In this document: piece by piece, positions 6,418 to 36,175 of the stretch | Numbering within the stretch: the stretch's first letter is position 1 | Layout: every line of letters begins with the position of its first letter | Assembly: GCA_049586635.1 (NCBI GenBank) | Contig: JBAVCK010000164.1 | Span: 11,128 to 75,127 of the forward strand | Direction of reading: 5' to 3' | DNA length: 64,000 bases | Origin: Candidatus Bathyarchaeia archaeon | GTDB taxonomy: Archaea; Thermoproteota; Bathyarchaeia; 40CM-2-53-6 | Translations under genes and position numbers: made by a program | Notes under the pieces: model-generated | Seen by the model: only the letters and a program-made list of their open reading frames with translations | Told to the model about the DNA's origin: nothing | The model's database searches: none

Positions 6418-7050
6418 ATGGTCGGTTCGTCGCTCGACGTTTTTCTGAATGGTGTTGTCGCAGGTTACGGCATAGCGATTCCAGTAGGACCAATTGCCGT
6501 TCTGATCCTTGAGCTAGGATTTCGTCGCGGGTTTAGGGTTGCGTTAAGCGCGGGGGCTGGTGCTGCCTCAGCGGATTTGATTTACGCGACGGTCGCCGCC
6601 CTCGCGGGGACACTAATAATCTCAGTTCTAGCGCCGTTCGCATTCATTTTGCGCATCGGAAGCGGGATAGGCTTGGTCGGTATGGGTGCGTGGCTGCTGT
6701 ACCATCGAAGGGATAGGTCCGACCGTGCTCACAAACCCAGGCTTAGAGCTACGAGCTGTCCACAAGCCTACGGCATGATTCTGGGACTAACTCTCCTCAA
6801 CCCCGTCACAATAACCTACTTCACAACTTTGATCCTGGGAATGCAGGGTTTTTCTCCATCTCCTTTGAGCGCAATCCCCTTCATCTTTGGAGCGTTCCTT
6901 GCTTCTTTGTCCTGGCAAAGCCTCTTAGCAGCAATTAGCGGTGTAGCGCACAAACACCTCTCAGCAAAGCTACAATTAGCAACATTCGCAGTCGGAAATT
7001 GCGTGATTATAGGATTGGGAATTGCGATATTGCTAGGACTCCGAATCTAA
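6418..7050 (+). CDS. LysE/RhtB family amino-acid exporter
   Basis: 210 aa, 5-6 TM segments, N-terminal GIAIPVGPIAVLILE and family-like topology. Confidence 0.7.
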   Translation: MVGSSLDVFLNGVVAGYGIAIPVGPIAVLILELGFRRGFRVALSAGAGAASADLIYATVAALAGTLIISVLAPFAFILRIGSGIGLVGMGAWLLYHRRDRSDRAHKPRLRATSCPQAYGMILGLTLLNPVTITYFTTLILGMQGFSPSPLSAIPFIFGAFLASLSWQSLLAAISGVAHKHLSAKLQLATFAVGNCVIIGLGIAILLGLRI

Positions 7051-8072
7051 GCGGCTGTGGTCTGCTCGCCCGGTCGTTTCGTTCTCCCAAGAACCATCAT
7101 GATGGCTAACAAGGCGACTATTCCAAAGCCCACGATTCCATAGACCTCGTACGCGGTTAAGACGCCTGTGAATTCCCCGTGTTCCCCAGATTCTAGCCCG
7201 ATCGTTTCAGTCACAACATTCACAGTACCATGCATCCAACCATGGTATGTGCAAATGTACTGGTACACGCCTGGCCTGGTGAAGGTGTAGACATATGTGG
7301 CGCCGGGATTCATATTCCCCGAATCAAAACTAGCATCTCTCGCAGTTACTGTGTGCGGCATGGCGTCATTGTTGGTCCACTTCACCGTGTTATTGACCCC
7401 GATGACGACCGTCAAATCCGCAGGCGTATAGCCTGGTGAGTTAACGTTTGTACTCGCGCCGGGGTCGATGCTCACGAGGATCGTGGTTGAGCTTTGCGGC
7501 ACCGTCTGGTTAGGGGCGGTTGGTTGGGTTATGCTTGAAGTATTTGGTGCGAGCACGACCAAGTAACCAATCATGCCGACTTGAACGTGGTACGTACACA
7601 CGTATTCGAAGATACCAGCGTAATTTGCCACAAAGGAGTAAGTGGCTGAAACATTGCCTGGCGTGCCTGAAACCACGACGCCGGGAGAGTTGCGTGTGGC
7701 AGGTGTTGTGATTAGTTGGCCTGTCACATCATCATGCAGGCCGGGGACGGAAGCATTAACCACAATGTTGTAGGGCGGTCCTATAACAAAATCATGAACC
7801 ACTGTGTCATTGTTGATGAATGTGAGGGCAACTGTGTCGCCTTGGTTCACAATGATGAAATCCGGATAGAACCTGTCCTGACCGCTGAGATTCTTCGTCC
7901 ATTCAATGAGGACATTCCTCGTAGTCGCCGTTTGGGTAGTCTGCGCCAAAGCCGTAACGTTGGAGGTGACAGCAACAAAAAGCAACATGGACACTAGTAC
8001 TGCGATGAAGAAGGTTTGAAACGGTGCTAACCGGATCTGCGAACTCAACGCCCAGTCAACCCAGCCGCTCAA
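7047..8072 (-). CDS. membrane-anchored two-domain blue copper (cupredoxin/plastocyanin-like) protein
   Basis: Two type-1 Cu ligand sets: VVHDFVI...YVCTYHVQVGM and MPHTVTA...YICTYHGWM; N-terminal hydrophobic segment and C-terminal TM helix. Confidence 0.8.
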   Translation of the reverse strand: MSGWVDWALSSQIRLAPFQTFFIAVLVSMLLFVAVTSNVTALAQTTQTATTRNVLIEWTKNLSGQDRFYPDFIIVNQGDTVALTFINNDTVVHDFVIGPPYNIVVNASVPGLHDDVTGQLITTPATRNSPGVVVSGTPGNVSATYSFVANYAGIFEYVCTYHVQVGMIGYLVVLAPNTSSITQPTAPNQTVPQSSTTILVSIDPGASTNVNSPGYTPADLTVVIGVNNTVKWTNNDAMPHTVTARDASFDSGNMNPGATYVYTFTRPGVYQYICTYHGWMHGTVNVVTETIGLESGEHGEFTGVLTAYEVYGIVGFGIVALLAIMMVLGRTKRPGEQTTAA

Positions 8073-9527: not shown

Positions 9528-10436
9528 ATGAGAACAGGGTTCTTTCTTCCTCAAATTGGGCCTGTTGCAGGCCCGCGCACAATTGTCAAAGTCGCGAAGC
9601 GTGCAGAGGAATTGGGTTATGATGGGCTCTGGGTAACTGAACGCCTCCTATGGCCTGTGAACCCTCAGACATCGTACTACGGGGGGCCGATTCCTGAAGT
9701 CTACAAACGAGTTTTCGACCCAATTGAAACTTTGACCTTTGCTGCCGCGCACACAAACCGCGTCTCCTTAGGCACGAGCGTTCTCGACATTCCATTCTAT
9801 AATCCAGTTTTGCTCGCCCGACGGTTAACCACACTGGACCAAGTCTCGAATGGAAGGCTAAAGGTCGGGTTCGGCCTCGGTTGGTCGAAGGACGAACATG
9901 ATGCGATAGGCTCATCGCTGAAAGGGCGGGGGAAACGCGCAGACGAATTCTTGAAAGTCCTCAAGGCTATTTGGACAACGGACCCAGCTGAATTTCATGG
10001 AAAATACTTCCAGCTTCCCAAATCCGTAATCCAACCCAAGCCGGTGCAGAAACCACATCCCCCCATTTACATGGCGGCGTTCGCCCCTTTGGCAATGAAA
10101 CGTGCAGCAACTTTCGCCGACGGGTGGATGCCCGTTGGAGTTTCGGTTGACCAGTTGAAGTCGATGTCAGCCCAGATCAAGGACATGATTAAGGGCGCTG
10201 GCCGCGACCCAGCCCACTTCAAAGTAGTAGCTCGATACAACATTGACGTTAGACCCGAACCCATTGGGAAAGAACGAAGCTTCTTTTCCGGCAGCCTAGA
10301 CCAGCTCAAGGAAGACATTCGTGCAGTGAAGGACGCCAAGCCTGACGAATTGATAATTGACCCAACGTTCTCAGCTGACAGCCAAACTGAGGAAGGCTTC
10401 CTGAAAAACCTAGAACAGATCCGCAAAATGATCTGA
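9528..10436 (+). CDS. LLM-class (luciferase-like) F420-dependent oxidoreductase
   Basis: 302 aa; N-terminal FFLPQIGP...AKRAEELGYDGLWVTERL and overall TIM-barrel LLM pattern. Confidence 0.8.
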   Translation: MRTGFFLPQIGPVAGPRTIVKVAKRAEELGYDGLWVTERLLWPVNPQTSYYGGPIPEVYKRVFDPIETLTFAAAHTNRVSLGTSVLDIPFYNPVLLARRLTTLDQVSNGRLKVGFGLGWSKDEHDAIGSSLKGRGKRADEFLKVLKAIWTTDPAEFHGKYFQLPKSVIQPKPVQKPHPPIYMAAFAPLAMKRAATFADGWMPVGVSVDQLKSMSAQIKDMIKGAGRDPAHFKVVARYNIDVRPEPIGKERSFFSGSLDQLKEDIRAVKDAKPDELIIDPTFSADSQTEEGFLKNLEQIRKMI

Positions 10437-11274: not shown

Positions 11275-12624
11275 TTGGTAGCGAAGCTCGAAAAACCAAG
11301 AATCGTAGTCACACCACCTGGGCCGAAGGCACGTGAACTTCTCGAGAAGGACGCGAACATTCTATCGCATTCGGTTGTTAGATGGTACCCGCTCGTCGCA
11401 GAATCCGGGTCCGGCTGCTTTGTCAAGGATGTGGACGGGAATGAGTATGTGGACTTCAATTCGGGTTTAGTGGTCCTCAACGTTGGCCATTGCCATCCTC
11501 GAGTTGTTAAAGCGATTAAGGATCAAGCTGAGAAGCTGATTCACTATTCGTGGACCGATTTCTACTACAAGCCAATCGTTGACCTAGCTGAACAACTTAC
11601 TAAAATTACACCTGGAATGTTCCGAAAGAAGGTCTTCTTTTCGAATAGCGGCGCGGAAGCGAACGAGGCCGCGATGAAAATGGCAAGGTGGCACACCCGG
11701 AAACCGCTCTTCTTAGCGTACACGGGCTCATTCCATGGCCGTTCTTTCGCAACAATGAGCCTCACTGCAAGCAAGCCGGTGCAGAGGCGGCACTTCTTCC
11801 CCTTAGGGCAGGAAGTTACCCATGTTCCCTACCCGTATTGTTATCGCTGTCCCTTTAGCCTCACTTATCCTGAATGTAACATGTGGTGCGTAGACTTCAT
11901 CGAAGAGGAGGTCCTCAAGAAGTTTCATCCTCCCGAAGACACGGCTGCCATGTTCGTTGAGGCCATCCAAGGTGAAGGAGGGTACGTGGTCCCACCCGAC
12001 GACTACTTCCAACGCCTCAAGAAAATTCTTGACAAGTACGATATTCTGCTAGTGGATGATGAAATCCAGTCGGGTATGGGGCGGACAGGTAAATGGTTCG
12101 CCATCGAACATTGGGGCGTAACGCCAGACATAGTGAGCGCAGCTAAAGCGGTCGCATCAGGCGTCCCAATCGGCGCAACAATTGCCAAGGAGGAAATAAT
12201 GGACTGGGAGGGAGGTTCACATGCGAACACGTTCGGGGGTAACCCCATAGCATGCGCGGCTGGACTGCAAGTAATCGAGATCATAAAAGAAGAGAAACTG
12301 CTGGAAAATGCAACCCGCCAAGGAACCTATCTGATGAAACGCCTGAAAGAGATGCAACAGAAGTATGATATCATAGGTGACGTGCGGGGCAAGGGGCTGA
12401 TGGTCGGCGTAGAGTTCGTCAAGGACCGGGAAACGAAGGAACCTGCCGCTCAAGAAATTCTTGATATCATGAACAAATGCTTCAAACGCGGCCTAGCAAT
12501 CATAACCGCGGGCAAGTCGACGATGCGTTTTGCCCCGCCGCTAATCATTACACATGAAATAATCGACGCCGGCCTAGAAATATTCGAGGGCGCAGTAAAA
12601 GAGGTAGCAGCACAACTCAAGTAG
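11275..12624 (+). CDS. class-III PLP aminotransferase (4-aminobutyrate/acetylornithine aminotransferase-like)
   Basis: FSNSGAEANEAAMK, DEIQSGMGRTGK, PLP-Lys context DIVSAAKAVASG; TTG start. Confidence 0.85.
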   Translation: MVAKLEKPRIVVTPPGPKARELLEKDANILSHSVVRWYPLVAESGSGCFVKDVDGNEYVDFNSGLVVLNVGHCHPRVVKAIKDQAEKLIHYSWTDFYYKPIVDLAEQLTKITPGMFRKKVFFSNSGAEANEAAMKMARWHTRKPLFLAYTGSFHGRSFATMSLTASKPVQRRHFFPLGQEVTHVPYPYCYRCPFSLTYPECNMWCVDFIEEEVLKKFHPPEDTAAMFVEAIQGEGGYVVPPDDYFQRLKKILDKYDILLVDDEIQSGMGRTGKWFAIEHWGVTPDIVSAAKAVASGVPIGATIAKEEIMDWEGGSHANTFGGNPIACAAGLQVIEIIKEEKLLENATRQGTYLMKRLKEMQQKYDIIGDVRGKGLMVGVEFVKDRETKEPAAQEILDIMNKCFKRGLAIITAGKSTMRFAPPLIITHEIIDAGLEIFEGAVKEVAAQLK

Positions 12625-15050: not shown

Positions 15051-16265
15051 TCATTGGGCTTCCGGCGCCGGGGCGATCTGAAGCAATTCATGTTTCCGTT
15101 GTTCTAGGAATCCTTCACGTAACCCACGCCTCAGGTAGTAGGCGTTACGTTCCCGTTTCTTCTTGCTGGAGAGCCTGACAACGAACGGCAGCCCAGTAGG
15201 TTTAGCGTTTTCTATCGGGGCAGCTTCGATGACCCTGGCCTTGACGGCGCTGTCGAATAATTTCTGACCCAGTTCCGAACGTACGATAACTGTAGTCCAT
15301 CCATCCGGTGAACCAACCGCCCCCACTGAAATGTCAGCCAGTTCCGCTACGTAGTCGATGCAATAATGGCACGGTTGGCTCATGTATGATTCAAGTTCTT
15401 TGATTTGAACGTCGAGGACGCAGTCTGCTCCAACGTAGACTTTGAACCGGTTCCTCTTCACGACTGTCCTCGTAATTTTCGCAGGGTCTATCCCGTGTTT
15501 GTTCTGGATGAATTCGGTGACAAGTTGATCATGCGTGTATACTTTCGAGCAGAATAGGCCAATTGTTAGAACTGGGCGTCCACCTCTGATCCAAGAGCCG
15601 CCAAATTTCACTGTGGCCTGTAATGATGTGTACATTCGCCAAAGCCCTTGTAGTTCGCAAGGGAGTGCGACTAGGCCAACTCGTCCGTCGGGGTATGATG
15701 CGGCTGCATCGGACAAGACTCCTAACACTCCGCCATGAGTGTATTTCGACCCAGCCGTGCGGATTAGGTCGGCTGCAGTATCACCCACAACCGGCACGGT
15801 CTTGAGTGCCATTCCGTTGCCAAGAACGAAGACTGAGTTGGATTTAGTGAAGTCCGATGTTGCAAAGCAGTTAATCAGCCCAATTTGAAGGGCATGGGTC
15901 ATGAGTGCTATGACGGTGCCGCCATCTTGGCCTGCATGCCATATCTCCTCGTCCAAAGCCCTTGCTGAGTAAATGTTCCTGTAAATGCCCAGTGACTCTT
16001 CTTCGGGCTTCCGGGTTCTGCCGAACAGGTAGTACTCGATTTCGTCTAGCGGAAACTCCAGCCTCGGGCAGCTATAGTAGCAGACTTGGCAAGCAGCACA
16101 AGGCCCTTTGATGACTGGTTCCTCGTTCACATTCACGTTCAGGACATTGATCGGGCAGGAGGCGACGCATGCGCCGCACATCATACAGTGCTTTGCGCGG
16201 ACCACTTCGTTGAATAAGTGGCCCCAAATCTTCGCATTCTTGGGCGGGGACCAGCCGTCAGCCAT
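15051..16265 (-). CDS. coenzyme F420 hydrogenase/dehydrogenase beta-subunit (FrhB) family protein with N-terminal 2x[4Fe-4S] ferredoxin domain
   Basis: CMMCGACVASCP and CAACQVCYYSCP cluster motifs followed by FrhB-like QDGGTVIALMTHALQIGLI... core. Confidence 0.75.
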   Translation of the reverse strand: MADGWSPPKNAKIWGHLFNEVVRAKHCMMCGACVASCPINVLNVNVNEEPVIKGPCAACQVCYYSCPRLEFPLDEIEYYLFGRTRKPEEESLGIYRNIYSARALDEEIWHAGQDGGTVIALMTHALQIGLINCFATSDFTKSNSVFVLGNGMALKTVPVVGDTAADLIRTAGSKYTHGGVLGVLSDAAASYPDGRVGLVALPCELQGLWRMYTSLQATVKFGGSWIRGGRPVLTIGLFCSKVYTHDQLVTEFIQNKHGIDPAKITRTVVKRNRFKVYVGADCVLDVQIKELESYMSQPCHYCIDYVAELADISVGAVGSPDGWTTVIVRSELGQKLFDSAVKARVIEAAPIENAKPTGLPFVVRLSSKKKRERNAYYLRRGLREGFLEQRKHELLQIAPAPEAQ

Positions 16266-23809: not shown

Positions 23810-25234
23810 TTAGTTTGCCTTTACGGCCGCGGCGTATATTTCCAGTCCTTTGTCGAGTAGTTGTTCGCTGATGATCAACGGAGCCATGAAACGAAGTACG
23901 TTTCCAAAGTGACCACATGTGTGCATTAGAAGCCCCTTCTCAAACATCGTTTTTCGCAGATTGACGGCCAAGTCTTTCGAAGGTACTTTTGTTTCCTTTG
24001 AATTCACGAACTCATTACCAATCATGAAGCCTGCCCCCCTCACTTCTCCTATATTGTTACTCGTCTTTGCAATCTGGTCGAACCGCGCGATGGTTTTCTT
24101 TCCCAGTTGTTGCACCCTGCTGAGTAGATTCATTTGTTGGATGAAATCGATGCTTGCAGAGCCTGCGGCCAAGGCTATCGGGTTGGCCCTGTACGTTCCG
24201 AGGTGAAAGGCTTCGGGAAGATTGGTGTCGTATTCGTCACGATATGCAATTAACGAGAGTGGAATACCTGCCCCCACTGATTTGGATACACACATAATGT
24301 CTGGTGAGGTGTCTGTCAGCTCACATCCCCAAAAGTGTCCAGTTCTTCCAAACCCTGTTTGCACTTCGTCAATTATCAAAGGAATCTGGAACCTATCGGC
24401 GATTTCCCTCAGGCCGGGGAGGAAGTCGTTTGGGGGAACAATGTATCCTCCTTCACCTTGAATGGGTTCAACCAAAATAGCGCCAGTATCGTCGAGGCCG
24501 GAATGGGAGTCCGTCAACAGATGTTCAAGGTATCTCAGAACAACTTTCGCCTCGTCACCTTTCTTTTCGACGGGGAGCGGGAACCGGTATGGGTAAGGAT
24601 ATGGAAGGTGAAACACACCGTACCTCACAGCACCTGAAGTAGAGAGGTATTGCCGGCTAGCGGTTGCGCCCACGATGCCCTGGTGGACGCCGTGGTATGC
24701 TCCTTCGAACGCGACTACTGTTCTCTTCCCACTTACGTACCTAGCGAGACTCACTGCTGCTTCACATGCGTCTCCACCTGTAACGGTAAACAGGATTTTC
24801 GCGTGTCCGCGAAGGTTACCGGGTAGGATGGAATGCATTCTCTCCAGGAAGCCGATCCTGGTTTCAGTCGGAATCTCGAGCGCGTGCCAGATACGGTCCA
24901 TCTGCGCCTTCACTGCTGCGCTGATAACCGGGTTGTTGTGTCCTAGGTTGAGTACGCTGATACCGCTGACCCAATCGATGTAGACGTTCCCGTCGACGTC
25001 TTTTATCGTGGCACCCTTGGCTGAGTCAATGGCAAAGGGGAATGCCTTGCTGTAAATCACAGCTCTTGTCTCGAGTGCTGATTGTTTCGCTAGGAGTTCC
25101 TTCGACTTGGGCCCCGGGGGTTTTACTAACATCCGAGGGGCTTCTTCGAAGCTTAACCCTTGGAGAGAAGACAGTTGTGTGCACCTAGCCACACGCTCAT
25201 CTTCATTCGTAATTAGCATTATCGGCCGAATCAA
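23810..25234 (-). CDS. class-III PLP aminotransferase (paralogue of 11275-12624)
   Basis: PPGPKSKELL N-terminus parallels PPGPKARELL of the paralogue; DEVQTGFGRTGH; PLP-Lys context DIMCVSKSVGAG. The N-terminal 5-30 codons of the ORF may not be translated. Confidence 0.85.
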   Translation of the reverse strand: MIRPIMLITNEDERVARCTQLSSLQGLSFEEAPRMLVKPPGPKSKELLAKQSALETRAVIYSKAFPFAIDSAKGATIKDVDGNVYIDWVSGISVLNLGHNNPVISAAVKAQMDRIWHALEIPTETRIGFLERMHSILPGNLRGHAKILFTVTGGDACEAAVSLARYVSGKRTVVAFEGAYHGVHQGIVGATASRQYLSTSGAVRYGVFHLPYPYPYRFPLPVEKKGDEAKVVLRYLEHLLTDSHSGLDDTGAILVEPIQGEGGYIVPPNDFLPGLREIADRFQIPLIIDEVQTGFGRTGHFWGCELTDTSPDIMCVSKSVGAGIPLSLIAYRDEYDTNLPEAFHLGTYRANPIALAAGSASIDFIQQMNLLSRVQQLGKKTIARFDQIAKTSNNIGEVRGAGFMIGNEFVNSKETKVPSKDLAVNLRKTMFEKGLLMHTCGHFGNVLRFMAPLIISEQLLDKGLEIYAAAVKAN

Positions 25235-25531: not shown

Positions 25532-26527
25532 ATGGTTTGCATGTCAACATCTTCGGGCGAACCAAACATATTCCCCGGGAACTGGACCATTAAGACGCAG
25601 CAATTACTTCGCACCTATGAGCAATCTTTCGTACAAGACTGGAGCCCTGTCACATTAGCATGGGATTCATTGGACCCGTCGGGTCTGGATCTCAAAGAGC
25701 GAGTCGCGCAGGCCTATTGGATGGCCAAATTGGCACTTTTCGAAAAATCCGGAATCGGAGCATTTGGAACGGCTATGCTAAAGGCAGCTATGTCCGACAT
25801 GGAGGACCCTACGAAGAAGTTCCTGGCGGCTGTGACGTTTGATGAGTGTAGGCATGACGAAGTTTGCCGGCGAGCTTGCAATAAGCTCTGCCCGAACTTT
25901 CCATACAAGTACAATGCCACGACAGATTTTGAGAAGAGGGCTCTGAAGAATATTCTAGCGTTGTATGATAATGGGCGACGGTACTGGAACGGCTTCATGA
26001 AAGCCTGGGATAAATACCCGTTAGAATTAATCTTCTCAAGTTTCTTCTTCGCCGAAATTGGTGCGCAATTGATCTTCAACACGGTAAGCGAACTCTCGAA
26101 CATCAAACTCTACAAGGAAGCCTTCCAGAACGTTACCGTCGACGAGTCACGCCATCTAGCAGGAACGCTATCTTTACTGGAGAACCTGGCAAGAGATTTC
26201 AAAGAAGACCAAAAACTCATGATTACTAGACAGATGAAACATGGTTTCATCTTTCTATCTCCCCTTCTATACAAGCCAATGCCTGTTTTCTGGCATTTGC
26301 CGAAAGACTTCGACGAAGTTGATCAGGAGATGGAAGGGATGGCTAGAAACTCGGGGTTAGGCGTACCTACTATGCAAGAGAAGTCCAAGGGTTGGTTGAA
26401 AGCGATACAGAGGCGAAGGGAACAAGTGGAAAAATTGGGAATCCCAATCCCCGCCATCCATGAGATAGACTTGGAAGGAGAAGAGGTCGACGTTCGCGCG
26501 GACGAGCCTATTGCTACGCCGTTCTAG
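25532..26527 (+). CDS. ferritin-like di-iron carboxylate protein (oxygenase/R2-like fold), function unknown
   Basis: Two E...ExxH sets at the spacing typical of di-iron four-helix bundles: E71 (LFEKSG)...E105-x2-H108 (FDECRHDE), and E175 (FFAEIG)...E205-x2-H208 (VDESRHLA). Confidence 0.6.
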   Translation: MVCMSTSSGEPNIFPGNWTIKTQQLLRTYEQSFVQDWSPVTLAWDSLDPSGLDLKERVAQAYWMAKLALFEKSGIGAFGTAMLKAAMSDMEDPTKKFLAAVTFDECRHDEVCRRACNKLCPNFPYKYNATTDFEKRALKNILALYDNGRRYWNGFMKAWDKYPLELIFSSFFFAEIGAQLIFNTVSELSNIKLYKEAFQNVTVDESRHLAGTLSLLENLARDFKEDQKLMITRQMKHGFIFLSPLLYKPMPVFWHLPKDFDEVDQEMEGMARNSGLGVPTMQEKSKGWLKAIQRRREQVEKLGIPIPAIHEIDLEGEEVDVRADEPIATPF

Positions 26528-28520: not shown

Positions 28521-28528
28521 TTATATAA
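28521..28528 (+). promoter_or_regulatory. candidate TATA box of the radical-SAM/heme operon
   Basis: TTATATAA preceded by a G-rich stretch (GGCGGGG), 67 nt upstream of the ATG at 28596, in a 191-nt divergent intergenic region. Confidence 0.4.
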
Positions 28529-28554
28529 CGAACGTTAAATAGAAGATTGAAACC

Positions 28555-28575
28555 AGCCAATTAGCCTAACTGGCT
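28555..28575. promoter_or_regulatory. 21-bp near-perfect palindrome, candidate TetR operator
   Basis: AGCCAATTAGCCTAACTGGCT has 9 of 10 arm positions complementary around a central C. It lies about 27-47 nt downstream of the TATA box, over the expected transcription start. Confidence 0.4.
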
Positions 28576-28595
28576 TTGGACTCGGAGTTGCTGAA

Positions 28596-29759
28596 ATGAC
28601 AAAACCGCCCTGGACGATGAGGAGTGACCTCTCTGAGGCTCCGATCTTTGTTTGCTGGGAAACAACCAAGGCCTGCTTATTGGCATGCAAACACTGTAGA
28701 GCCAAAGCCATCAGGAAACCCATGGCGGGTGAGCTCAACCACGAGCAGAGCATGAGGCTCATCGATCAACTTACAAAATTCGGGGAGCCATATCCCGCTC
28801 TTCTCTTAACCGGCGGAGACCCCCTTATGCGAGACGACTTCTTCGACTTGGTTGAGCGGGCGAAGACCCTTGGAATTTACGTTGCGGTTGCTGCCAGCGT
28901 GACGTCCAAGCTAAATGAATCATCAATGTCGCGAATGAGGGAGCTTGGGGTTGACATTATGTCAGTTAGCCTCGATGGGGCGTCGCCAGAAACTCATGAC
29001 CGGCTCCGCGGAATCCGGGGCACATGGAACGAAACGATACAGTCGCTAAATTTGGCCAGACGGTTAGGATTACGGGCGCAAATCAACACGACGGTTATGA
29101 GAAGCAACCTCGGGGAGTTAGCTGATATCTTTCACATCGTCAGGGAAACCGGAGCGGTTGCTTGGGAAGTCTTCTTCCTGATTCGAACAGGTCGGGGAGC
29201 AGCCCTCGAGGCCCTCGAACCTGCAGAATGCGAGGGGGTCATGCACTTTCTTTTTGATGCCGCACATTACGGCGTCCCCGTCAGGACTGCTGAAGGGCCG
29301 AATTTTAGAAGGGTACGCATAGAGCGAGTGAAAAACAAGAATCCACCAAATGGAGAACCGTACCTCAGCTTAGTTGCGAGGTTGCGGCTTCTCGAAGGGC
29401 AACCTACAAGCGGAGCTATCCTGAAGTCAACCCAAACAAGGGACGGGAAGGGTATCATGTTCGTCGCACACGACGGAGAGGTATACCCAAGCGGTTTTCT
29501 ACCCCTCAGCTCAGGCAAGGTGCCGGAAGACGACTTAGGAACAATCTACAGGTCCAGCCCACTATTCACCGCACTAAGGGATTCGTCAAACCTGAAGGGG
29601 CGGTGCGGCAGATGCGAGTACAAGGAAATCTGCGGGGGCTCAAGGTCAAGGGCTTTTGCCGAATACGACGACCCGCTCCAAGAAGACCCTGCATGTCCAT
29701 ACCTCCCGGACGGAAACCTAACTGAGGCATTGCCTCTGGCAAACAGAGACCTGAGCTGA
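28596..29759 (+). CDS. radical SAM/SPASM-domain protein, AhbD/NirJ-like
   Basis: CLLACKHC (CX3CX2C), TGGDPLMR, SLDGASPETHDRLRGIRG, C-terminal LKGRCGRCEYKEICGGSRSRAF...DPACPY auxiliary-cluster region resembling AhbD as I remember it. Confidence 0.85.
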   Translation: MTKPPWTMRSDLSEAPIFVCWETTKACLLACKHCRAKAIRKPMAGELNHEQSMRLIDQLTKFGEPYPALLLTGGDPLMRDDFFDLVERAKTLGIYVAVAASVTSKLNESSMSRMRELGVDIMSVSLDGASPETHDRLRGIRGTWNETIQSLNLARRLGLRAQINTTVMRSNLGELADIFHIVRETGAVAWEVFFLIRTGRGAALEALEPAECEGVMHFLFDAAHYGVPVRTAEGPNFRRVRIERVKNKNPPNGEPYLSLVARLRLLEGQPTSGAILKSTQTRDGKGIMFVAHDGEVYPSGFLPLSSGKVPEDDLGTIYRSSPLFTALRDSSNLKGRCGRCEYKEICGGSRSRAFAEYDDPLQEDPACPYLPDGNLTEALPLANRDLS

Positions 29760-29768
29760 ACTAGCAAA

Positions 29769-30371
29769 ATGTCGAACGTTAACCAAGAGCACAGAATACT
29801 CGAAGTCGCCAAAGGCCTCTTCACCAAGCGCGGTTTTCCTAACGTGGCCATTCGCGACATATGTAGAGCCGCCAACGTCACTGCCCCCACCCTCTACTAC
29901 TACTTCAGAAATAAGGAGGCCCTGTTCGACGCAGTTGTGCGCGAAAGCGTAAGCATGAAAGGGTTCATCACGCTACTGACTGACGAATGCGGAAAGTCTG
30001 AGAATCCCACCTCACAAGTCCGAGCGTTCATTCACACTTACCTCACCGGTTTCCCGAAGGAACGCTTGAACGTCGGCCTCTACGTCAGGAACTCAACAGA
30101 GCTTGATTCCATTGGACGAAACAGCCTTCAAGCCGAGCTCACTCAGATTCAATCTCTGTTAACAGGAATCATTCGAAGCGGCGTCGCTGAACGAGAATTT
30201 CGCGAAACGGACCCGAAGATGGCGGCCGAATGTCTGCTTGGTATGATGAACCGCATCGTCTTTCAGCAGATCCATTTCCAGAGAAGGTACAAACAGTCAG
30301 AGGCAGCGGCTTACCTTTACGATTTCTTCCTCAAAGCAATGCGGCCGAGCTCCGAACACAACAGCGCATGA
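29769..30371 (+). CDS. TetR/AcrR family transcriptional regulator
   Basis: ILEVAKGLFTKRGFPNVAIRDICRAANVTAPTLYYYFRNKEALF HTH; starts 10 nt after the radical SAM stop; its TGA overlaps the hemC ATG (ATGA). Confidence 0.85.
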   Translation: MSNVNQEHRILEVAKGLFTKRGFPNVAIRDICRAANVTAPTLYYYFRNKEALFDAVVRESVSMKGFITLLTDECGKSENPTSQVRAFIHTYLTGFPKERLNVGLYVRNSTELDSIGRNSLQAELTQIQSLLTGIIRSGVAEREFRETDPKMAAECLLGMMNRIVFQQIHFQRRYKQSEAAAYLYDFFLKAMRPSSEHNSA

Positions 30372-31309
30372 AAGCCCCAGGACAACGAACAATGAAGCAA
30401 CGCATCTTGATTGGGACGAGGGGCAGTGTGCTTGCAATAGCGCAAACAAGTGAAGTTGTTAATTCGCTGAGGAAAATTGCGCCTCAAGTTCGATGCGAAG
30501 TTGTTTCGATCAAGACTCAGGGAGACACTATAGAAGGGGCTGGAACGGGTGCGCTGGAAAGTAAGAGTGTGTTCACGAAGAAGATCGAGGATTCACTAAT
30601 TCGGGGTCGTGTCGACTTAGCTGTCCATAGCATGAAGGACCTTACCACCGATTTGCCCCCGGGCCTTGTGATCGCCTGTGTCCCTGAACGAGTTGACCCA
30701 CGTGATGTCCTGATCTCACGAGACAAGAAGAAACTTGAGCAGCTCGACGGCGGGGCAAGAGTTGGAACGAGCAGCGCTAGGCGGAAAGCGCAGCTTCTAG
30801 CCGCGCGTGGTGACCTAGAAATCGTTGAGATGCGCGGAAACGTTGACACGCGCATGGGAAAACTCGAGAAGGGCGGTTGCGACGCGATAGTGCTTGCGGC
30901 TGCTGGGCTGATAAGGCTTGGACTTGAAAAGAAGGTAACTCAATTTCTTTCGCCGGATGTAATGCTGCCTGCGGTTGGGCAGGGGGCCGTCGCAGTTCAG
31001 AGCCGGGAAGAAGATGCTGAGGTTCGGGACCTGGTTGCAAAGCTGGATCATGAGCCGACGCGCCGGGCAATTGAGGCTGAGCGTGGGTTCGCGCGAGGGC
31101 TTGGGGCCAATTGTCGGACCCCTACAGCGGCTTACGCGAGGTTTGCGGATGGGACGTTAACTATTGAAGGGATGGTCGCCGCGGCCAGTGGGAAACTGGT
31201 TCTGCGAGGCCGAATTTCTTCGGATAGCCCCAACGCCGAGAGGGCAGGGCGAGAGCTGGCGGAATCACTGCTGAAGAAAGGTGCTGGAATAGTTTTGGAG
31301 GCCGCCTGA
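30368..31309 (+). CDS. hemC: porphobilinogen deaminase (hydroxymethylbilane synthase)
   Basis: ILIGTRGSVLAIAQT, RGNVDTRMGKL, cofactor Cys in LGANCRTP. ATG 30368 overlaps the TetR stop; alternative ATG at 30392. Confidence 0.9.
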   Translation: MKAPGQRTMKQRILIGTRGSVLAIAQTSEVVNSLRKIAPQVRCEVVSIKTQGDTIEGAGTGALESKSVFTKKIEDSLIRGRVDLAVHSMKDLTTDLPPGLVIACVPERVDPRDVLISRDKKKLEQLDGGARVGTSSARRKAQLLAARGDLEIVEMRGNVDTRMGKLEKGGCDAIVLAAAGLIRLGLEKKVTQFLSPDVMLPAVGQGAVAVQSREEDAEVRDLVAKLDHEPTRRAIEAERGFARGLGANCRTPTAAYARFADGTLTIEGMVAAASGKLVLRGRISSDSPNAERAGRELAESLLKKGAGIVLEAA

Positions 31310-32097
31310 TGCAATCAGCCTCTCTAAAACCACTCTCAGGGCTTAGGGTCCTGGTAACCCGCCCCGTTGAACAGGCTCAAACTCTCTCTGAGAAACTGCG
31401 TGACCTCGGAGCAGAGACAATCGAACTGCCAACCATCGAGGTAGTCCCCGCCCAAAACAATGACCCCTTGGACCAAGCGTTACGGAGACTCAGCGACTAT
31501 CATTGGGTCATATTCACAAGTGTTTATGGCGTCAGGTTCCTGATGAAACGCCTAGCCAACATCGAAGTCTCGCCCACGGTCTTGAGAGAGGTCATGGTAG
31601 CCGCGATCGGGCCTGCCACAGCGTCGGAGTTGGAGCGGGCGGGGAAGAAACCGGAATTTGTTCCTAACGAGTTCCTCTCCGAGAAGATAGCTGATGGGCT
31701 AGGCAATGTTGGGGGGAGACGAATCCTTCTCCCACGCGCGGATATAGCGTCAAAGAAACTCCCAGAACTATTGCGAAGACGTGGAGCGTTGGTTGAAGAG
31801 GTTGTTGCATATCAGACGATCATCCCACCGGATTTGACGTCTGAGCGTGTCAATTCCATATTCATGAGAGGAATAGACCTAGTGATTTTCACCAGCCCAT
31901 CCACTGTCCATAACCTAGTCCAAGTCCTCGGAGACGATAGATTAGGCCAGATTTTGAGCAACGTCAAGGTTGCTTGCATTGGCCCCGTAACGGTCCAAGC
32001 AACCAAGGAACTGGGTATAGGCGTGAACATTGTTGCGGGCATTCGCACGGTCGATGCTTTAGTAGAGGCAATAGTTGATGAAATCAGAACTGTATGA
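31309..32097 (+). CDS. hemD: uroporphyrinogen-III synthase
   Basis: LSGLRVLVTRPVEQAQTLSEKLRDLGAETIELPTI, two-lobed HEM4 pattern; its ATG overlaps the hemC TGA. Confidence 0.8.
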   Translation: MQSASLKPLSGLRVLVTRPVEQAQTLSEKLRDLGAETIELPTIEVVPAQNNDPLDQALRRLSDYHWVIFTSVYGVRFLMKRLANIEVSPTVLREVMVAAIGPATASELERAGKKPEFVPNEFLSEKIADGLGNVGGRRILLPRADIASKKLPELLRRRGALVEEVVAYQTIIPPDLTSERVNSIFMRGIDLVIFTSPSTVHNLVQVLGDDRLGQILSNVKVACIGPVTVQATKELGIGVNIVAGIRTVDALVEAIVDEIRTV

Positions 32098-33088
32098 AAC
32101 GTCGAAAGAATTTGAAACAACTGAAAGGCCCCGTCGCCTTAGACGGCTACGCGCCCTGCGCATGTTGATGCAAGAAACGCGGCTGTCAATTTCGGACATG
32201 ATGTACCCAATCTTCGTGGACCGCAGGATTTCTAAGCGCACGCAAGTTGAGTCGATGCCAGGAATCTACAGGCTCCCCATCTCGGATTTGAAGGCCGAAA
32301 TTTCCGAGGTGACAGCTCTGAAGATACCGGCCATACTTGTTTTCGGATTGCCGGGACGCAAGGATGCGGTGGGTAGCGAAGCACACGCAAGCGATGGAAT
32401 AGTTCAGGAGGCGGTTCGCGAGGTGAAGAAATTGGCGCCGCAACTCGTCGTCGCTACCGACGTTTGCCTATGCCAATACACCGATCATGGGCACTGCGGA
32501 GTGGTTCACGGCGGAACTGTCGCTAACGATGAAACATTGAGAATTCTCGCCCGCGTTGCTATATCGCATGCGGAGGCTGGCGCCGATATGGTTGGCCCGA
32601 GCGCGATGATGGACGGACAGGTGAAAGCAATTCGCGCTGCACTTGACGAACGAAGCTACAAGGAGACTTCCATCATGTCTTACTCAGCCAAGTACGCGTC
32701 TGCGTTCTATGGGCCGTTTAGGGAAGCCGCCGAGTCCTCGCCGCTTTGGGGAGATCGTCGAACCTACCAGATGGATTCCCCTAACTCTCGGGAAGCAATG
32801 CGGGAAATCTCAATCGACATTGAGGAAGGAGCAGATATCGTGATGGTGAAGCCTGCACTGAGCTACTTGGACGTTATCAGCCGCGCACGTGCAGAGTTTC
32901 ACGTACCACTAGCCGCATACAATGTGAGTGGCGAGTATGCCATGATTATGGCAGCCGATCAGAAAGGATGGCTTGACCATAAACTCGTGGCTCTGGAAGT
33001 ACTGACCGCCATCAAGCGTGCCGGCGCGGATGTGATAATCACTTACTTTGCGAAGGAGGCGGCGAAATGGTTGCAGGAGGCTGAATGA
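32075..33088 (+). CDS. hemB: porphobilinogen synthase (ALA dehydratase), Zn-type
   Basis: RPRRLRRLRALR, Cys-rich metal site DVCLCQYTDHGHCG, Schiff-base Lys contexts MVKPA and YSAKYAS. Confidence 0.9.
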   Translation: MMKSELYETSKEFETTERPRRLRRLRALRMLMQETRLSISDMMYPIFVDRRISKRTQVESMPGIYRLPISDLKAEISEVTALKIPAILVFGLPGRKDAVGSEAHASDGIVQEAVREVKKLAPQLVVATDVCLCQYTDHGHCGVVHGGTVANDETLRILARVAISHAEAGADMVGPSAMMDGQVKAIRAALDERSYKETSIMSYSAKYASAFYGPFREAAESSPLWGDRRTYQMDSPNSREAMREISIDIEEGADIVMVKPALSYLDVISRARAEFHVPLAAYNVSGEYAMIMAADQKGWLDHKLVALEVLTAIKRAGADVIITYFAKEAAKWLQEAE

Positions 33089-33813
33089 TGAAAACTCAAA
33101 CTTCAACGGAAACTAACCCTATCCAAACTACCGAAAGAGAGTACCTGAAGTACACATTCTTCAAAGTTGACTCACAGTGGAGACGCCTCGACAGTGCGAA
33201 TAGGTCAGCGGCGAAGCGCGATTTCGCATCTATCACTACTAGCTTCGGGAATCAAAATATTCTCAGTAGTTACTCCCTCGTCGGAACTCGAGGAGACGCT
33301 GACTTTATGCTTTGGACGATTAGCAGACGCGTGGAGGATTTCCAAGAACTAGCCTCAAATCTTCTATCGTCAATTCTGGGAAAATACTTGGAAACCCCAT
33401 ACTCCTACCTGGCGATTACGAGACAGTCTGAATACCTAGGCGGCCACCAACATGAAGGGCAAGAGGGCGCATCACTAAGCAGGCGTCCTGGGAACTCAAA
33501 ATACCTCTTCGTGTACCCGTTCGTGAAGAAACGTGAATGGTATTTCCTACCGCACGAGGAGCGGAGGCTCATGATGGCGCAGCATTTCAAGATAGGGCAC
33601 AAGTATCCCTCGGTCCAAATCCACACGGGTTACTCCTTTGGCCTAGACGATCAGGAATTCGTCTTAGCTTTTGAGACTGACAAGCCTGCTGACTTCTCTG
33701 AGCTTGTAATGGAACTCAGGAGTAGTGAAGCCAGCCGTTACACAGCACTCGAGACTCCGATCTTCACCTGCATAAGGATGCCGATCAACGAAATTCTCAA
33801 TCTCCTCGGGTGA
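33085..33813 (+). CDS. chdC: chlorite-dismutase-family protein, coproheme decarboxylase (HemQ/ChdC)-like
   Basis: YLFVYPFVKKREWYFL, MMAQHFKIGHKYPSVQIHTGYSFGLDDQEFVLAFETD, MELRSSEASRYT; its ATG overlaps the hemB TGA and follows GGAGG. Confidence 0.8.
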   Translation: MMKTQTSTETNPIQTTEREYLKYTFFKVDSQWRRLDSANRSAAKRDFASITTSFGNQNILSSYSLVGTRGDADFMLWTISRRVEDFQELASNLLSSILGKYLETPYSYLAITRQSEYLGGHQHEGQEGASLSRRPGNSKYLFVYPFVKKREWYFLPHEERRLMMAQHFKIGHKYPSVQIHTGYSFGLDDQEFVLAFETDKPADFSELVMELRSSEASRYTALETPIFTCIRMPINEILNLLG

Positions 33814-33892
33814 CTTTCGAAGCCTTTCATTTCTTGCTTTTGGAGTATGAATCTTCAGCCTTCGATGGGGGACGTTGGGATGGTTACGGCCA

Positions 33893-34924
33893 ATGTTGAA
33901 TGACCGCCTCATCAAAGCTTGTCGACGCCAACCCGTCGACGCCACTCCTGTCTGGTTTATGCGGCAAGCGGGCAGGTACCTGCCAGGGTACAGGAAGGTC
34001 AGAGAGAAACATGATGTGATTTCGATATGCAAGAATCCTGACCTATGCGCGAAAGTTACCACGATGCCCGTAGAAACTCTGGGTGTGGATGCCGCGATAA
34101 TGTTCGCTGACATCATGCTGCCTCTGCAAGGCATGGGAGTAAAGTTCGAAATCAAAGAAGGCCTCGGCCCTTTGATTCAAGAACCAATCCGAAGTTTAGA
34201 TTCCGCCAATTCCTTAACGGATCTTGACCCGAGTAATGACATGCCCTTTGTTCTCGAAGCGATAGCGCAGACCAAGAAGATGCTTGATGTTCCCTTGATT
34301 GGTTTCTGCGGGGCACCATTCACATTAGCGAGTTACATTATCGAGGGAAGGCCGACGAGGGATTTCGTGAACACGAAGACTCTAATGTACCGCGACCCGA
34401 AGACTTGGCATGCCTTGATGGATAAGTTATCGACCGCCATGGCAAGTTACTTACGAGCGCAAATCAAGGCGGGAGTCGATGTCGTTCAACTTTTCGACAG
34501 TTGGGTTGGCTGCCTCAGCCCGCGAGACTACCATCAGTACGTGCTTCACTATTCCCGCCGAATCTTCAAAGAGTTGGAGGCGACCGGCGTGCCGCGCATT
34601 CACTTCGGAACCGGAACATCAAACCTACTCGAAGAAATGAAGCAGGCGGGGGGAGATGTCTTCGGAGTTGATTGGAGGATTCCCATCGACCTTGCTTGGG
34701 CACGGCTAGGAAGCGATGTTGCAATTCAAGGTAATCTAGACCCGGCCGTCTTGCTCGGAAGCCCAGAGCTAATAAGATCTCAAGCCACGGAAATCCTAAC
34801 GAGAACTAAGGGAAAAGTTGGCCATATTTTCAACTTGGGCCATGGAATGTTGCCAGAAACATCGCCACAGAACGTTATTGAACTTGTGAATTTCGTTCAC
34901 GACTCGACTAAGAATTCTGGTTAG
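33893..34924 (+). CDS. hemE: uroporphyrinogen decarboxylase
   Basis: MLNDRLIKACRRQPVDATPVWFMRQAGRYLPGYR; ORF opens at TTG 33875, ATG at 33893. Confidence 0.9.
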   Translation: MLNDRLIKACRRQPVDATPVWFMRQAGRYLPGYRKVREKHDVISICKNPDLCAKVTTMPVETLGVDAAIMFADIMLPLQGMGVKFEIKEGLGPLIQEPIRSLDSANSLTDLDPSNDMPFVLEAIAQTKKMLDVPLIGFCGAPFTLASYIIEGRPTRDFVNTKTLMYRDPKTWHALMDKLSTAMASYLRAQIKAGVDVVQLFDSWVGCLSPRDYHQYVLHYSRRIFKELEATGVPRIHFGTGTSNLLEEMKQAGGDVFGVDWRIPIDLAWARLGSDVAIQGNLDPAVLLGSPELIRSQATEILTRTKGKVGHIFNLGHGMLPETSPQNVIELVNFVHDSTKNSG

Positions 34925-34933
34925 GCGCCAAAT

Positions 34934-35860
34934 TTGCCGGACCTCGCCGTTCTCCTGATGGCTTACGGTACTCCAACCTCAGAGAGGGATATGGAAGCAT
35001 ACTTGACCGATATCAGGAGAGGCCGCAAACCAACTCAAAGCGCCGTGGAAAACCTGATAGACCGATACAGGAAGATCGGTGGCCGTTCTCCACTCCTCGA
35101 TATTTCGAATGCACAAGCCTCAGCCCTAGAGAAGTCTCTGGGCGCACAAGGAATGGAGGCTCGAGTCTATGTTGGGATGAGACATTGGCATCCCTACATC
35201 GGTGAGGTCATTCCGAGAATCGCGAATGATGGTCTTCGTCGAATCGTCGCGTTGGCACTCGCCCCACACTATTCCGATATCAGTATTGGAGGGTACAAGC
35301 AAGCCCTCGATAAGGTGCTGGCTACGACCAGCGACATGCAGGCGGACTTTGTTGATAGCTGGTATGACCATCCCTTGTTCCATCGAGCCGTGGCCGAGAA
35401 GGTCAAGCAGGCTTTAGAGCAATTTCCCAAGTCGAGTAGCGTCGAATTCTTGTTTACAGCACACAGCTTACCCGAGCGAATTCTTGAGCAACACGACCCA
35501 TACCCCTCACAACTGCATAGCTCATGCGAAGCCGTGGCAGACCTCTTGAACCTTGACCAATGGTCTTTCGCCTATCAGAGTGCCGGGCAAACGGCGGAGA
35601 AATGGCTTGGCCCAGATCTTCTAGAATCGCTCCAAGAACTAAGTCAACATGATAAGGACTCCAACGTTCTCGTTGTTCCGATAGGCTTCGTCGCCGACCA
35701 CCTCGAAATCTTGTACGATATCGACGTAGAAGCCAAAGAGTTTGCAAGAACACATGGCCTGAACCTGAAGCGGGCTGAGTCCTTGAACACAAGCCCTACT
35801 TTCATATCGGCTCTGGCCGATATTGTCCTGAAACGAGTTAACCACGATAAATGGGCTTAA
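34934..35860 (+). CDS. hemH: ferrochelatase (protoporphyrin or coproporphyrin type not resolvable by eye)
   Basis: AVLLMAYGTP, LFTAHSLP, GFVADHLEILYDIDVE; TTG start 9 nt after hemE. Confidence 0.85.
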   Translation: MPDLAVLLMAYGTPTSERDMEAYLTDIRRGRKPTQSAVENLIDRYRKIGGRSPLLDISNAQASALEKSLGAQGMEARVYVGMRHWHPYIGEVIPRIANDGLRRIVALALAPHYSDISIGGYKQALDKVLATTSDMQADFVDSWYDHPLFHRAVAEKVKQALEQFPKSSSVEFLFTAHSLPERILEQHDPYPSQLHSSCEAVADLLNLDQWSFAYQSAGQTAEKWLGPDLLESLQELSQHDKDSNVLVVPIGFVADHLEILYDIDVEAKEFARTHGLNLKRAESLNTSPTFISALADIVLKRVNHDKWA

Positions 35861-35884: not shown

Positions 35885-36175
35885 CTAGGCTATCTCATGC
35901 TCGTCAATGTATAGAGTTATGAGTTTGCTTGCGAAGGCTTCTGTATCCCTCTGTGTGTTCAAGCCTTCTGGAGAAGCGAATCCTTTTTTCATGCTATCAA
36001 TGTCGTCGAACCATAGCTCCACGACTCCGTGGTAATCGGGTTCCCTGTTAGGCGGTCTCCTAACGACATTAGCAACGTACCTCCTCAATCCCGGCATCTT
36101 TCTTGCTAGAGGAGCATGCTTTTCCAGCCAGTATTTGGCAAATTCCTGATCGCTCAGAGTCTCTCTCTTCTTCAC
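35885..36175 (-). CDS. EthD-domain protein
   Basis: 96 aa; FAKYWLEKHAPLARKMPGLRRYVANVV...HGVVELWFDD resembles the EthD family pattern. Confidence 0.65.
   Translation of the reverse strand: MKKRETLSDQEFAKYWLEKHAPLARKMPGLRRYVANVVRRPPNREPDYHGVVELWFDDIDSMKKGFASPEGLNTQRDTEAFASKLITLYIDEHEIA

Follow-up and report, generated by a model that had tools for sequence, protein, structure and literature searches.

A Bathyarchaeia heme operon encoding ChdC-like and AhbD-like candidate coproheme decarboxylases

A candidate heme operon from a Bathyarchaeia archaeon was analysed within a 64,000-nt stretch of contig JBAVCK010000164.1, referred to as a whole as the window. The operon spans positions 28596-35860 and comprises eight + strand open reading frames (ORFs), encoding a radical S-adenosylmethionine (SAM) protein (here termed rSAM), a TetR-family regulator, HemC, HemD, HemB, a ChdC-like protein, HemE and the ferrochelatase HemH. 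With moderate confidence, it is read here as an operon for coproporphyrin-dependent (CPD) heme synthesis in which ChdC and the rSAM are alternative coproheme decarboxylases. The two are proposed to be isofunctional because the loss of either leaves the remainder of the operon and its operator intact. The original prediction, made from this DNA sequence, had offered two hypotheses, namely that the rSAM can stand in for ChdC without a need for O2 or that it oxidises coproporphyrinogen. The first is now the better supported, by reciprocal loss, by a shared operator and by an rSAM sequence type that matches the AhbD proteins of non-methanogens.

The route that such an operon would run is the CPD route and not the siroheme (Ahb) route with which archaea are usually credited. 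HemB, HemC and HemD would supply uroporphyrinogen III, which HemE would convert to coproporphyrinogen III. Oxidation of the latter would fall to an unlinked or other enzyme, or may be non-enzymatic when O2 is present, and a CpfC-type ferrochelatase would take coproporphyrin III to coproheme. The final conversion to heme b would be open to two non-homologous enzymes, ChdC, which would use H2O2 and hence act under oxic conditions, and an AhbD-type rSAM that would be independent of O2. Expression would start from a single promoter, whose TATA box sits within a 20-nt palindrome, most likely the operator for the TetR protein that the second gene encodes. Judging from sample names, dual enzymes for oxic and anoxic conditions would suit the peat and wet soil settings of these organisms, where O2 possibly fluctuates.

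Conservation and reciprocal loss in related loci

The window operon was compared with loci gathered with the rSAM, 80 each from GTDB genomes and JGI metagenomes. With up to 10 kb of flanking sequence, these were screened using the window proteins and seeds drawn from the loci themselves. The relevant span is covered by 42 archaeal-type loci, a number that may include duplicates between the GTDB and JGI sets. The conserved order in Bathyarchaeia is rSAM-TetR-(hemA)-hemC-hemD-hemB-chdC-(hemL)-hemE-hemH. The Nitrososphaerales have the same operon without TetR and with hemA and hemL, and the rSAM gene consistently adjoins hem genes in three phyla.

Loss was seen for both of the candidate decarboxylases. 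A chdC gene is present in 37 of the 42 archaeal-type loci and is cleanly lost in the other five (L108, L111, L116, L134 and L151), which keep rSAM, hemE and hemH. Eight further look-ups were anchored on ChdC, with flanks of 7-9 kb, and an rSAM gene was seen in seven of them. Locus L168, from Ga0137716_10001032, has the arrangement TetR-hemC-hemD-hemB-chdC-hemE-hemH, with no rSAM within 9 kb, as tblastn confirmed. The first 80 loci had suggested that a window-type rSAM is never the sole candidate decarboxylase, which favoured an oxidase function; this generalisation was overturned by the five chdC-less operons, all from metagenomes. Two of these operons carry a truncated hemA remnant of about 100 amino acids (L108, 11764-12084; L111, 11764-12045), and L111 also lacks hemL. 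The remnants, together with the loss of chdC, suggest stepwise erosion of the operon in the L108/L111 lineage.

The Spirochaetota loci fall into different arrangements. In 'type 1' operons (L027, 1149-9312; L031; L033-L036), two paralogues of the TIGR04053 family occur together, one of the window type and one nearer to AhbD; against the AhbD model the latter scores 343 bits and the window-type protein 277 bits. These operons also encode a SirC-HemA fusion, HemC, HemD, HemB, HemE and two tandem DUF4491 small membrane proteins, and no cgoX, chdC or hemH was found within 10 kb of them. Late heme synthesis in these operons may be a variant that is anaerobic throughout. In 'type 2' loci (L025, L030 and L040), a window-type rSAM lies beside a divergent cluster, hemL-cgoX-hemH-hemE-chdC-hemB-hemC/D-hemA, which includes a bona fide cgoX; its chdC is so divergent that it was found only by Pfam (40.7 bits) and iterative search. 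Several rSAM loci from Spirochaetota and Thermoplasmata have no heme genes nearby. Two Bacillota loci (L077, 3068-5247; L078, 2515-4693) show yet another order, in which a TetR gene is followed by a gene for a CgoX-related Amino_oxidase protein of about 365 amino acids and, immediately after it, by a clade-B TIGR04053 rSAM.

The radical SAM protein

The first gene of the operon (28596-29759, + strand) encodes an AhbD-like rSAM of the AuxII-only type, which is proposed to be an O2-independent coproheme decarboxylase. The AhbD-like character that had been noted from the motifs CLLACKHC and CGRCEYKEICGG...DPACPY holds, as both are present. When the protein was scored against family models, as had been recommended, the result was divided: it lies above the cutoff of TIGR04053 (464.5 bits, cutoff 395; residues 11-371, model positions 2-366 of 366) and below that of the AhbD model, TIGR04545. 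No function is assigned to TIGR04053 in NCBIfam, and no mention of the family was found in the literature. There is no exact match to the window rSAM among the proteins on record, and a PDB search with it returned no solved AhbD relative, the closest structure being PqqE.

The radical SAM CX3CX2C cysteines (C27, C31 and C34) and a C-terminal CX2CX5CX20C motif (C337, C340, C346 and C367) are invariant in 85 homologues. This is the combination of CX3CX2C and C-terminal CX2CX5CX20-38C (AuxII) motifs that Fix et al. 2023 (PMC10452713) saw in every AhbD of their comparison. The rSAM does not have a full SPASM domain with four AuxI cysteines; the AuxI cysteines of M. barkeri AhbD are replaced by S299 (about 38 residues before C337) and S349 (at the CX2C position), these positions being mapped by motif spacing, without the M. 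barkeri sequence. Four AuxI cysteines are restricted to the AhbDs of methanogens and sulfate reducers, and a Ser/Glu pattern is found in non-methanogenic archaea (PMC10452713). The Cys/Ser pattern of the window rSAM is thus that of the AuxII-only AhbDs of non-methanogens.

A phylogeny of the rSAM, also among the checks proposed earlier, points in the same direction. In a simple neighbour-joining tree without bootstrap, with the AhbC from a canonical AhbC-AhbD-AhbA-AhbB cluster (L059) as outgroup, all of the compared rSAMs fall into one AhbD-like group with the canonical AhbD of L059. The closest relatives outside the window clade are from Thermoplasmata, followed by Desulfurococcales genes that adjoin AhbA/B genes (L045 and L049), L049 also having genes for SUMT and HemD. 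The genomic association of AhbD with AhbA, AhbB and AhbC, on the siroheme branch, is absent from the window locus itself: tblastn of the window with AhbA, AhbB, AhbAB, AhbC and SUMT seeds recovered only the rSAM and MoaA.

The ferrochelatase and the ChdC-like protein

The last gene, hemH (34934-35860, + strand), encodes a protein that belongs clearly to the ferrochelatase family, with 249.6 bits to TIGR00109 (cutoff 124.6) and 290 bits to PF00762. Its best matches are the CpfC structures of B. subtilis and Listeria (232 bits, versus 141 bits for human PpfC). In LmCpfC, residues T14, Y46, S53, Y124, R29 and R45 hydrogen-bond the four propionates of coproporphyrin III (PMC9794026), and T14, Y46, S53 and Y124 were taken as the ligands of propionates 2 and 4. 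These six residues align with T13, Y45, S52, Y121, R28 and R44 of the window HemH, and LmCpfC Y12, H182 and E263 align with Y11, H177 and E258, so that all nine diagnostic residues are kept. The distinction between CpfC and PpfC, which the original prediction had left to active-site residues, thereby falls to CpfC, and HemH is assigned as a coproporphyrin-type ferrochelatase on these residues and on its higher score to CpfC.

The chdC (hemQ-like) gene (33085-33813, + strand) encodes a putative H2O2-dependent coproheme decarboxylase of an archaeal clade. The protein has the expected fold family (Pfam Chlor_dismutase, PF06778, 200.5 bits), and its best PDB matches are actinobacterial coproheme decarboxylases. 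Its scores lie below the cutoffs of the NCBIfam HemQ equivalogs (HemQ_actino, 151.3, cutoff 235; PRK12276, 93.9, cutoff 253), and it is therefore called ChdC-like and treated as a separate archaeal clade. A motif Y-P-M/F-x-K/R containing the catalytic Tyr, together with a proximal His, reportedly characterises ChdC (Pfanzagl et al. 2018). The coproheme decarboxylase residues on which the earlier identification depended are kept in the window protein, with the motif Y144-P-F-V-K148, a proximal His (H167) at the position of the ADH-motif His in PDB 9mhr, 9mhq and 9miq, and H121, which aligns with the distal His that in the actinobacterial proteins lies 17 residues before the Tyr. In one Bathyarchaeia lineage, chdC is fused to hemD in a 497-aa ORF with HEM4 and Chlor_dismutase domains (L017, 16802-18295; L019, 16719-18212); a separate hemB between hemD and chdC was not detected in these two loci.

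The coproporphyrinogen oxidase gap and alternative functions

The absence from the operon of an FAD-type coproporphyrinogen oxidase, remarked on from the beginning, extends to the whole 64-kb window by Pfam and by tblastn with a CgoX seed. A Pfam scan of about 48 further ORFs in the window found no CgoX (Amino_oxidase) or CgoN-like protein, and tblastn of the window found no cgoX, hemA, true hemL, ahbA/B or SUMT gene. Two class-III aminotransferase genes (11275-12624 and 23810-25234) were considered as hemL and rejected, with about 116 bits against true HemL, for which true orthologues exceed 500. A cgoX gene is also absent from all 42 archaeal-type loci, as far as their flanks of at most 10 kb reach.

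Several points weigh against a pairing of the rSAM and ChdC as coproheme decarboxylases. It leaves the coproporphyrinogen oxidase step without a gene, even in operons that hold every other step. The rSAM scores 270.5 bits against TIGR04545, for which the cutoff is 500, and two cysteines, C20 and C212, are invariant in and private to the window clade and do not occur in the Ahb-context relatives. Loss of the rSAM is represented by one locus, L168, within a 9-kb horizon, and the two paralogues of the type 1 Spirochaetota operons are difficult to reconcile with a role of both as coproheme decarboxylases. For ChdC, an archaeal (Sulfolobus) homologue with the motif was reportedly found inactive by Pfanzagl et al. 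2018. Finally, according to Fix et al. 2023, AuxII-only AhbDs have never been assayed (PMC10452713).

The gap could be closed if the rSAM were itself the missing O2-independent coproporphyrinogen III oxidase (a dehydrogenase), with ChdC as the sole decarboxylase. Hydrogen would be abstracted at the meso bridges in three SAM-dependent two-electron steps, with the electrons leaving via the auxiliary cluster. This is an unlikely reading, although it accounts for the absence of cgoX from all 42 operons, many of which cover all the remaining steps from hemA to chdC and add exactly one further enzyme, the rSAM, and for the lack of CgoX and CgoN in the window. C20 and C212 suggest a changed function relative to the Ahb-context relatives, AhbC, AhbD and NirJ already differ in their tetrapyrrole chemistry at 30-40% identity, and the type 1 Spirochaetota operons, without cgoX and chdC, would fit one paralogue for each missing step. 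With correspondingly little confidence, the C20/C212 clade might be put forward as a radical SAM coproporphyrinogen III dehydrogenase that is paired with an AhbD-like paralogue in some Spirochaetota; if true, this would be a new type of radical SAM reaction and would complete an O2-independent coproporphyrin route. A radical SAM porphyrinogen oxidase would, to our knowledge, be without precedent. The hypothesis is weakened by the distribution of the genes, since the five chdC-less operons would be left with no decarboxylase and L168 with no oxidase. Moreover, the type 2 Spirochaetota loci combine the window-type clade with a bona fide cgoX, and the Desulfurococcales relatives beside AhbA/B sit in a pathway that needs no oxidation step.

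The converse arrangement, in which the ChdC-like protein is inactive as a decarboxylase, as reportedly holds for the Sulfolobus homologue, and the rSAM is the sole heme synthase, is very unlikely. The Cld-family protein would then serve in heme or coproheme binding or as a peroxidase, in keeping with its scores below the NCBIfam HemQ cutoffs (151 versus 235 and 94 versus 253) and with the dispensability of chdC in 5 of 42 operons. However, the catalytic Tyr motif, the proximal His and the aligned distal His are all present, chdC lies between hemB and hemE, is translationally coupled through an ATGA overlap and is retained in the other 37 operons, and L168 keeps it without an rSAM. It is also highly doubtful that the rSAM has some other tetrapyrrole task within the same regulon, such as heme modification or salvage or a different decarboxylation (for example of coproporphyrinogen), off the main route to heme b. 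The silence of NCBIfam and the literature on TIGR04053, the extra cysteines, the co-occurrence of two paralogues in Spirochaetota and the Spirochaetota and Thermoplasmata loci without nearby heme genes could all be accommodated in this way. They are set against an operator common to the rSAM and hem genes in about 85 loci, a steady adjacency to hem genes in three phyla and the presence of AhbA/B-adjacent Desulfurococcales homologues among the nearest relatives. The assignment of ChdC and the rSAM as alternative coproheme decarboxylases is the best explanation and leaves one gap only, the oxidase; this assignment and the oxidase reading alike place some gene elsewhere in some genomes.

Promoter, predicted operator and TetR regulator

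A TATA-like element upstream of the first gene had been proposed and proves to be real, in that it lies within a 20-nt element that is conserved in about 85 related loci. The box itself, TTATATAA at 28521-28528, is overlapped by a 9-2-9 near-palindrome, TATATAACG-AA-CGTTAAATA (28522-28541, + strand). Its core, ATAACGAACGTTAAAT (28525-28540), occurs once in the window, and a search of the window allowing three mismatches gave one further match, inside a gene, which is about what shuffled sequence leads one to expect. The core is found 20-100 nt upstream of the rSAM gene in about 85 Bathyarchaeia loci, and the regions upstream of the rSAM gene in distant loci cannot be aligned except for the block TATATAACGAACGTTAAATAG. 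An inverted-repeat search with a seed of 6 found no arms, and the palindrome is visible solely through the cross-locus alignment. A second near-palindrome, AGCCAATTAG-C-CTAACTGGCT (28550-28576), occupies part of the interval from the TATA element to the rSAM start; only the closest relatives share it, and it is not family-wide.

The regulator gene (29769-30371, + strand) encodes a protein with the N-terminal helix-turn-helix and C-terminal ligand domain of TetR proteins (PF00440, TetR_N, 61 bits; PF17932, TetR_C_24, 44 bits). PDB comparison gave no specific relative of this protein and no link to known heme-sensing TetRs. In all Bathyarchaeia loci, TetR heads the hem genes, and it follows the operator where the rSAM gene is detached. 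The rSAM gene is split from TetR by other genes in L009/L107, L017, L019, L038, L147, L148 and L161-163, and in these loci a second core precedes TetR; in the rSAM-less L168, the only exact copy of the core precedes TetR. The 20-nt palindrome is probably the operator of the operon's own TetR, with binding predicted from these positional data, and TetR is probably a repressor of the heme operon.

Since the same element precedes both rSAM and TetR even when the two are split, the rSAM and hem genes are considered to be one regulon. Co-transcription of the rSAM with the hem genes does not hold throughout the family, as in some relatives the rSAM lies about 2.8 kb off, behind an operator copy of its own. 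Contigs binned as Acidobacteriota (L008/L102 and L014; Candidatus Acidiferrales and Acidoferrum) contain a Bathyarchaeia-type operon with TetR and operator at about 70% identity. These are probably cases of mis-binning or, failing that, of lateral transfer.

Operon layout, host and neighbouring genes

The eight co-oriented and tightly packed genes that had been described are all present on the + strand. Their family assignments were upheld by NCBIfam and Pfam profile searches, with HemC, HemB, HemE and HemH above curated equivalog cutoffs and the HemD and TetR proteins clear members of their Pfam families. Between TetR and chdC lie hemC (hydroxymethylbilane synthase, 30368-31309; TIGR00212, 336.6 bits, cutoff 164), hemD (uroporphyrinogen-III synthase, 31309-32097; Pfam HEM4, 217 bits) and hemB (porphobilinogen synthase, 32075-33088; NF006762, 490 bits, cutoff 297). 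The gene hemE (uroporphyrinogen decarboxylase, 33875-34924; TIGR01464, 423.9 bits, cutoff 303) precedes hemH, and all four are on the + strand.

The junctions largely bear out the earlier account. TetR/hemC and hemB/chdC are joined by ATGA overlaps and hemC/hemD by a 1-nt overlap (TGATG), hemD and hemB overlap by 23 nt (20 nt if hemB starts at the ATG at 32078), and hemE is separated from hemH by 9 nt. The gap between the rSAM gene and TetR is 9 nt and not 10 nt as had been given, and a 61-nt gap between chdC and hemE was missing from the earlier list. The next gene downstream of hemH, encoding an EthD protein (35885-36175), is convergent, and the unit therefore ends at hemH. We infer that the eight genes are co-transcribed as one unit from the single promoter. 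An Rfam scan of the window gave no match.

The archaeal origin supposed for this DNA is borne out by the nearest proteins and contigs, which belong to Bathyarchaeia metagenome-assembled genomes (MAGs); the nearest homologues of both the rSAM and ChdC are Bathyarchaeia MAG proteins. The GTDB representative MFD04408.bin.2.179 has the same operon on a 2.36 Mb contig, CAVSBL010000002.1, with 97% amino-acid identity in the rSAM. Two enoyl-CoA hydratase genes upstream and genes for EthD, EamA and SerRS downstream recur on many independent long contigs. From this recurring synteny, the locus is taken to be chromosomal and archaeal and not a contaminant; misassembly or bacterial contamination was rejected, as the same arrangement, including EthD, EamA and SerRS, is seen on many long independent Bathyarchaeia contigs.

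A gene at 25532-26527 (+ strand) encodes a 331-aa protein with two E-x-x-H motifs (DECRHDE and DESRHL), which suggest a ferritin-like di-iron enzyme. No Pfam match was found for it, and its PDB match, to aldehyde-deformylating oxygenase, is weak (E = 0.13). In 28 Bathyarchaeia loci the gene recurs, strongly conserved, beside the two enoyl-CoA hydratases and some 2 kb upstream of the operon; the operator motif is absent at this gene. Elsewhere in the window are genes for a cupredoxin-domain protein (7047-8072, - strand), a luciferase-like monooxygenase (9528-10436, + strand) and an FrhB/FdhB-like F420-related protein (15051-16265, - strand), which point tentatively to a redox metabolism linked to copper and F420 in this archaeon.

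Comparison with known systems

Archaea are treated in reviews and surveys as users of the siroheme (Ahb) route only. Literature searches on CPD or heme biosynthesis in Bathyarchaeia or Thaumarchaeota found nothing relevant, and a ferrochelatase survey left archaeal genomes out entirely (PMC8529089). An AhbD-like enzyme for an anaerobic CPD route has been proposed in reviews (PMC10114771, PMC13564367), and AhbD is present in CPD bacteria without other Ahb enzymes (2026 Chem Rev, PMC13564367). The claim that the operon is an undescribed configuration can accordingly be retained in part: the idea of an AhbD-like backup and the pair of enzymes in Haloferax are known, whereas no description was found of HemE, CpfC and ChdC with an AhbD-like gene under one TetR operator in archaea. 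As far as the searchable literature shows, three features appear to be new, namely a HemE-CpfC-ChdC route that is widespread in two archaeal classes, the joining of CPD genes, an AuxII-only AhbD-type gene and TetR behind a conserved operator, and the consistent lack of a linked coproporphyrinogen oxidase in archaeal CPD operons. Conserved across many peat and soil Bathyarchaeia and Nitrososphaerales, the operon presents a complete-looking coproporphyrin route in archaea and a natural setting for the AhbD-like enzyme proposed for the anaerobic form of that route. The near-invariant operator is a candidate TetR site and a handle on other members of the regulon, possibly including the missing oxidase.

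Compared with the CPD route of Firmicutes and Actinobacteria (hemE, cgoX/hemY, cpfC/hemH and chdC/hemQ), the window operon is alike in HemE, in the propionate ligands of CpfC and in the Tyr motif and actinobacterial-type distal His of ChdC, and its ferrochelatase is short (308 aa), like the CpfC chains of B. subtilis and Listeria. It differs in its archaeal host, in having no linked CgoX or CgoN, in a ChdC that forms a separate clade and in joining hemC, hemD, hemB, an AhbD-like rSAM and TetR in one unit. With the AuxII-only AhbDs (PMC10452713), the rSAM shares CX3CX2C, CX2CX5CX20C and Ser in place of AuxI Cys. Unlike the AhbD of the Ahb pathway, it has C20 and C212, scores below the model cutoff, has no AhbA, AhbB, AhbC or SUMT nearby and is associated not with siroheme enzymes but with HemE, CpfC and ChdC.

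The sharing of one step between an O2-requiring and a radical SAM enzyme is also known from the CgdC/HemF and CgdH/HemN pairs of the protoporphyrin route, although these concern another step, substrate and set of families and are normally not encoded in one operon. CgoN (YtpQ) of Priestia megaterium, an FAD (flavin adenine dinucleotide)-containing, O2-independent coproporphyrinogen oxidase of the CPD route (PMC10965808), fills the same gap that is seen here; the window rSAM is unrelated to it, and no CgoN homologue was found in the window or the related loci. A parallel that fits the reading of two alternative decarboxylases is Haloferax volcanii, in which genetic evidence shows PitA, with its ChdC domain, to be required under aerobic and AhbD under anaerobic conditions (Kosugi et al. 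2017, PMC5746218). There, too, an archaeon has ChdC-type and AhbD-type candidate coproheme decarboxylases for oxic and anoxic use. However, coproheme in Haloferax is thought to be derived from siroheme by the Ahb route, no common operon is described for the genes and the ChdC there carries a fused ABM domain, whereas in the window operon coproheme would be expected from HemE and CpfC and both candidate decarboxylase genes lie under a common promoter and predicted operator.

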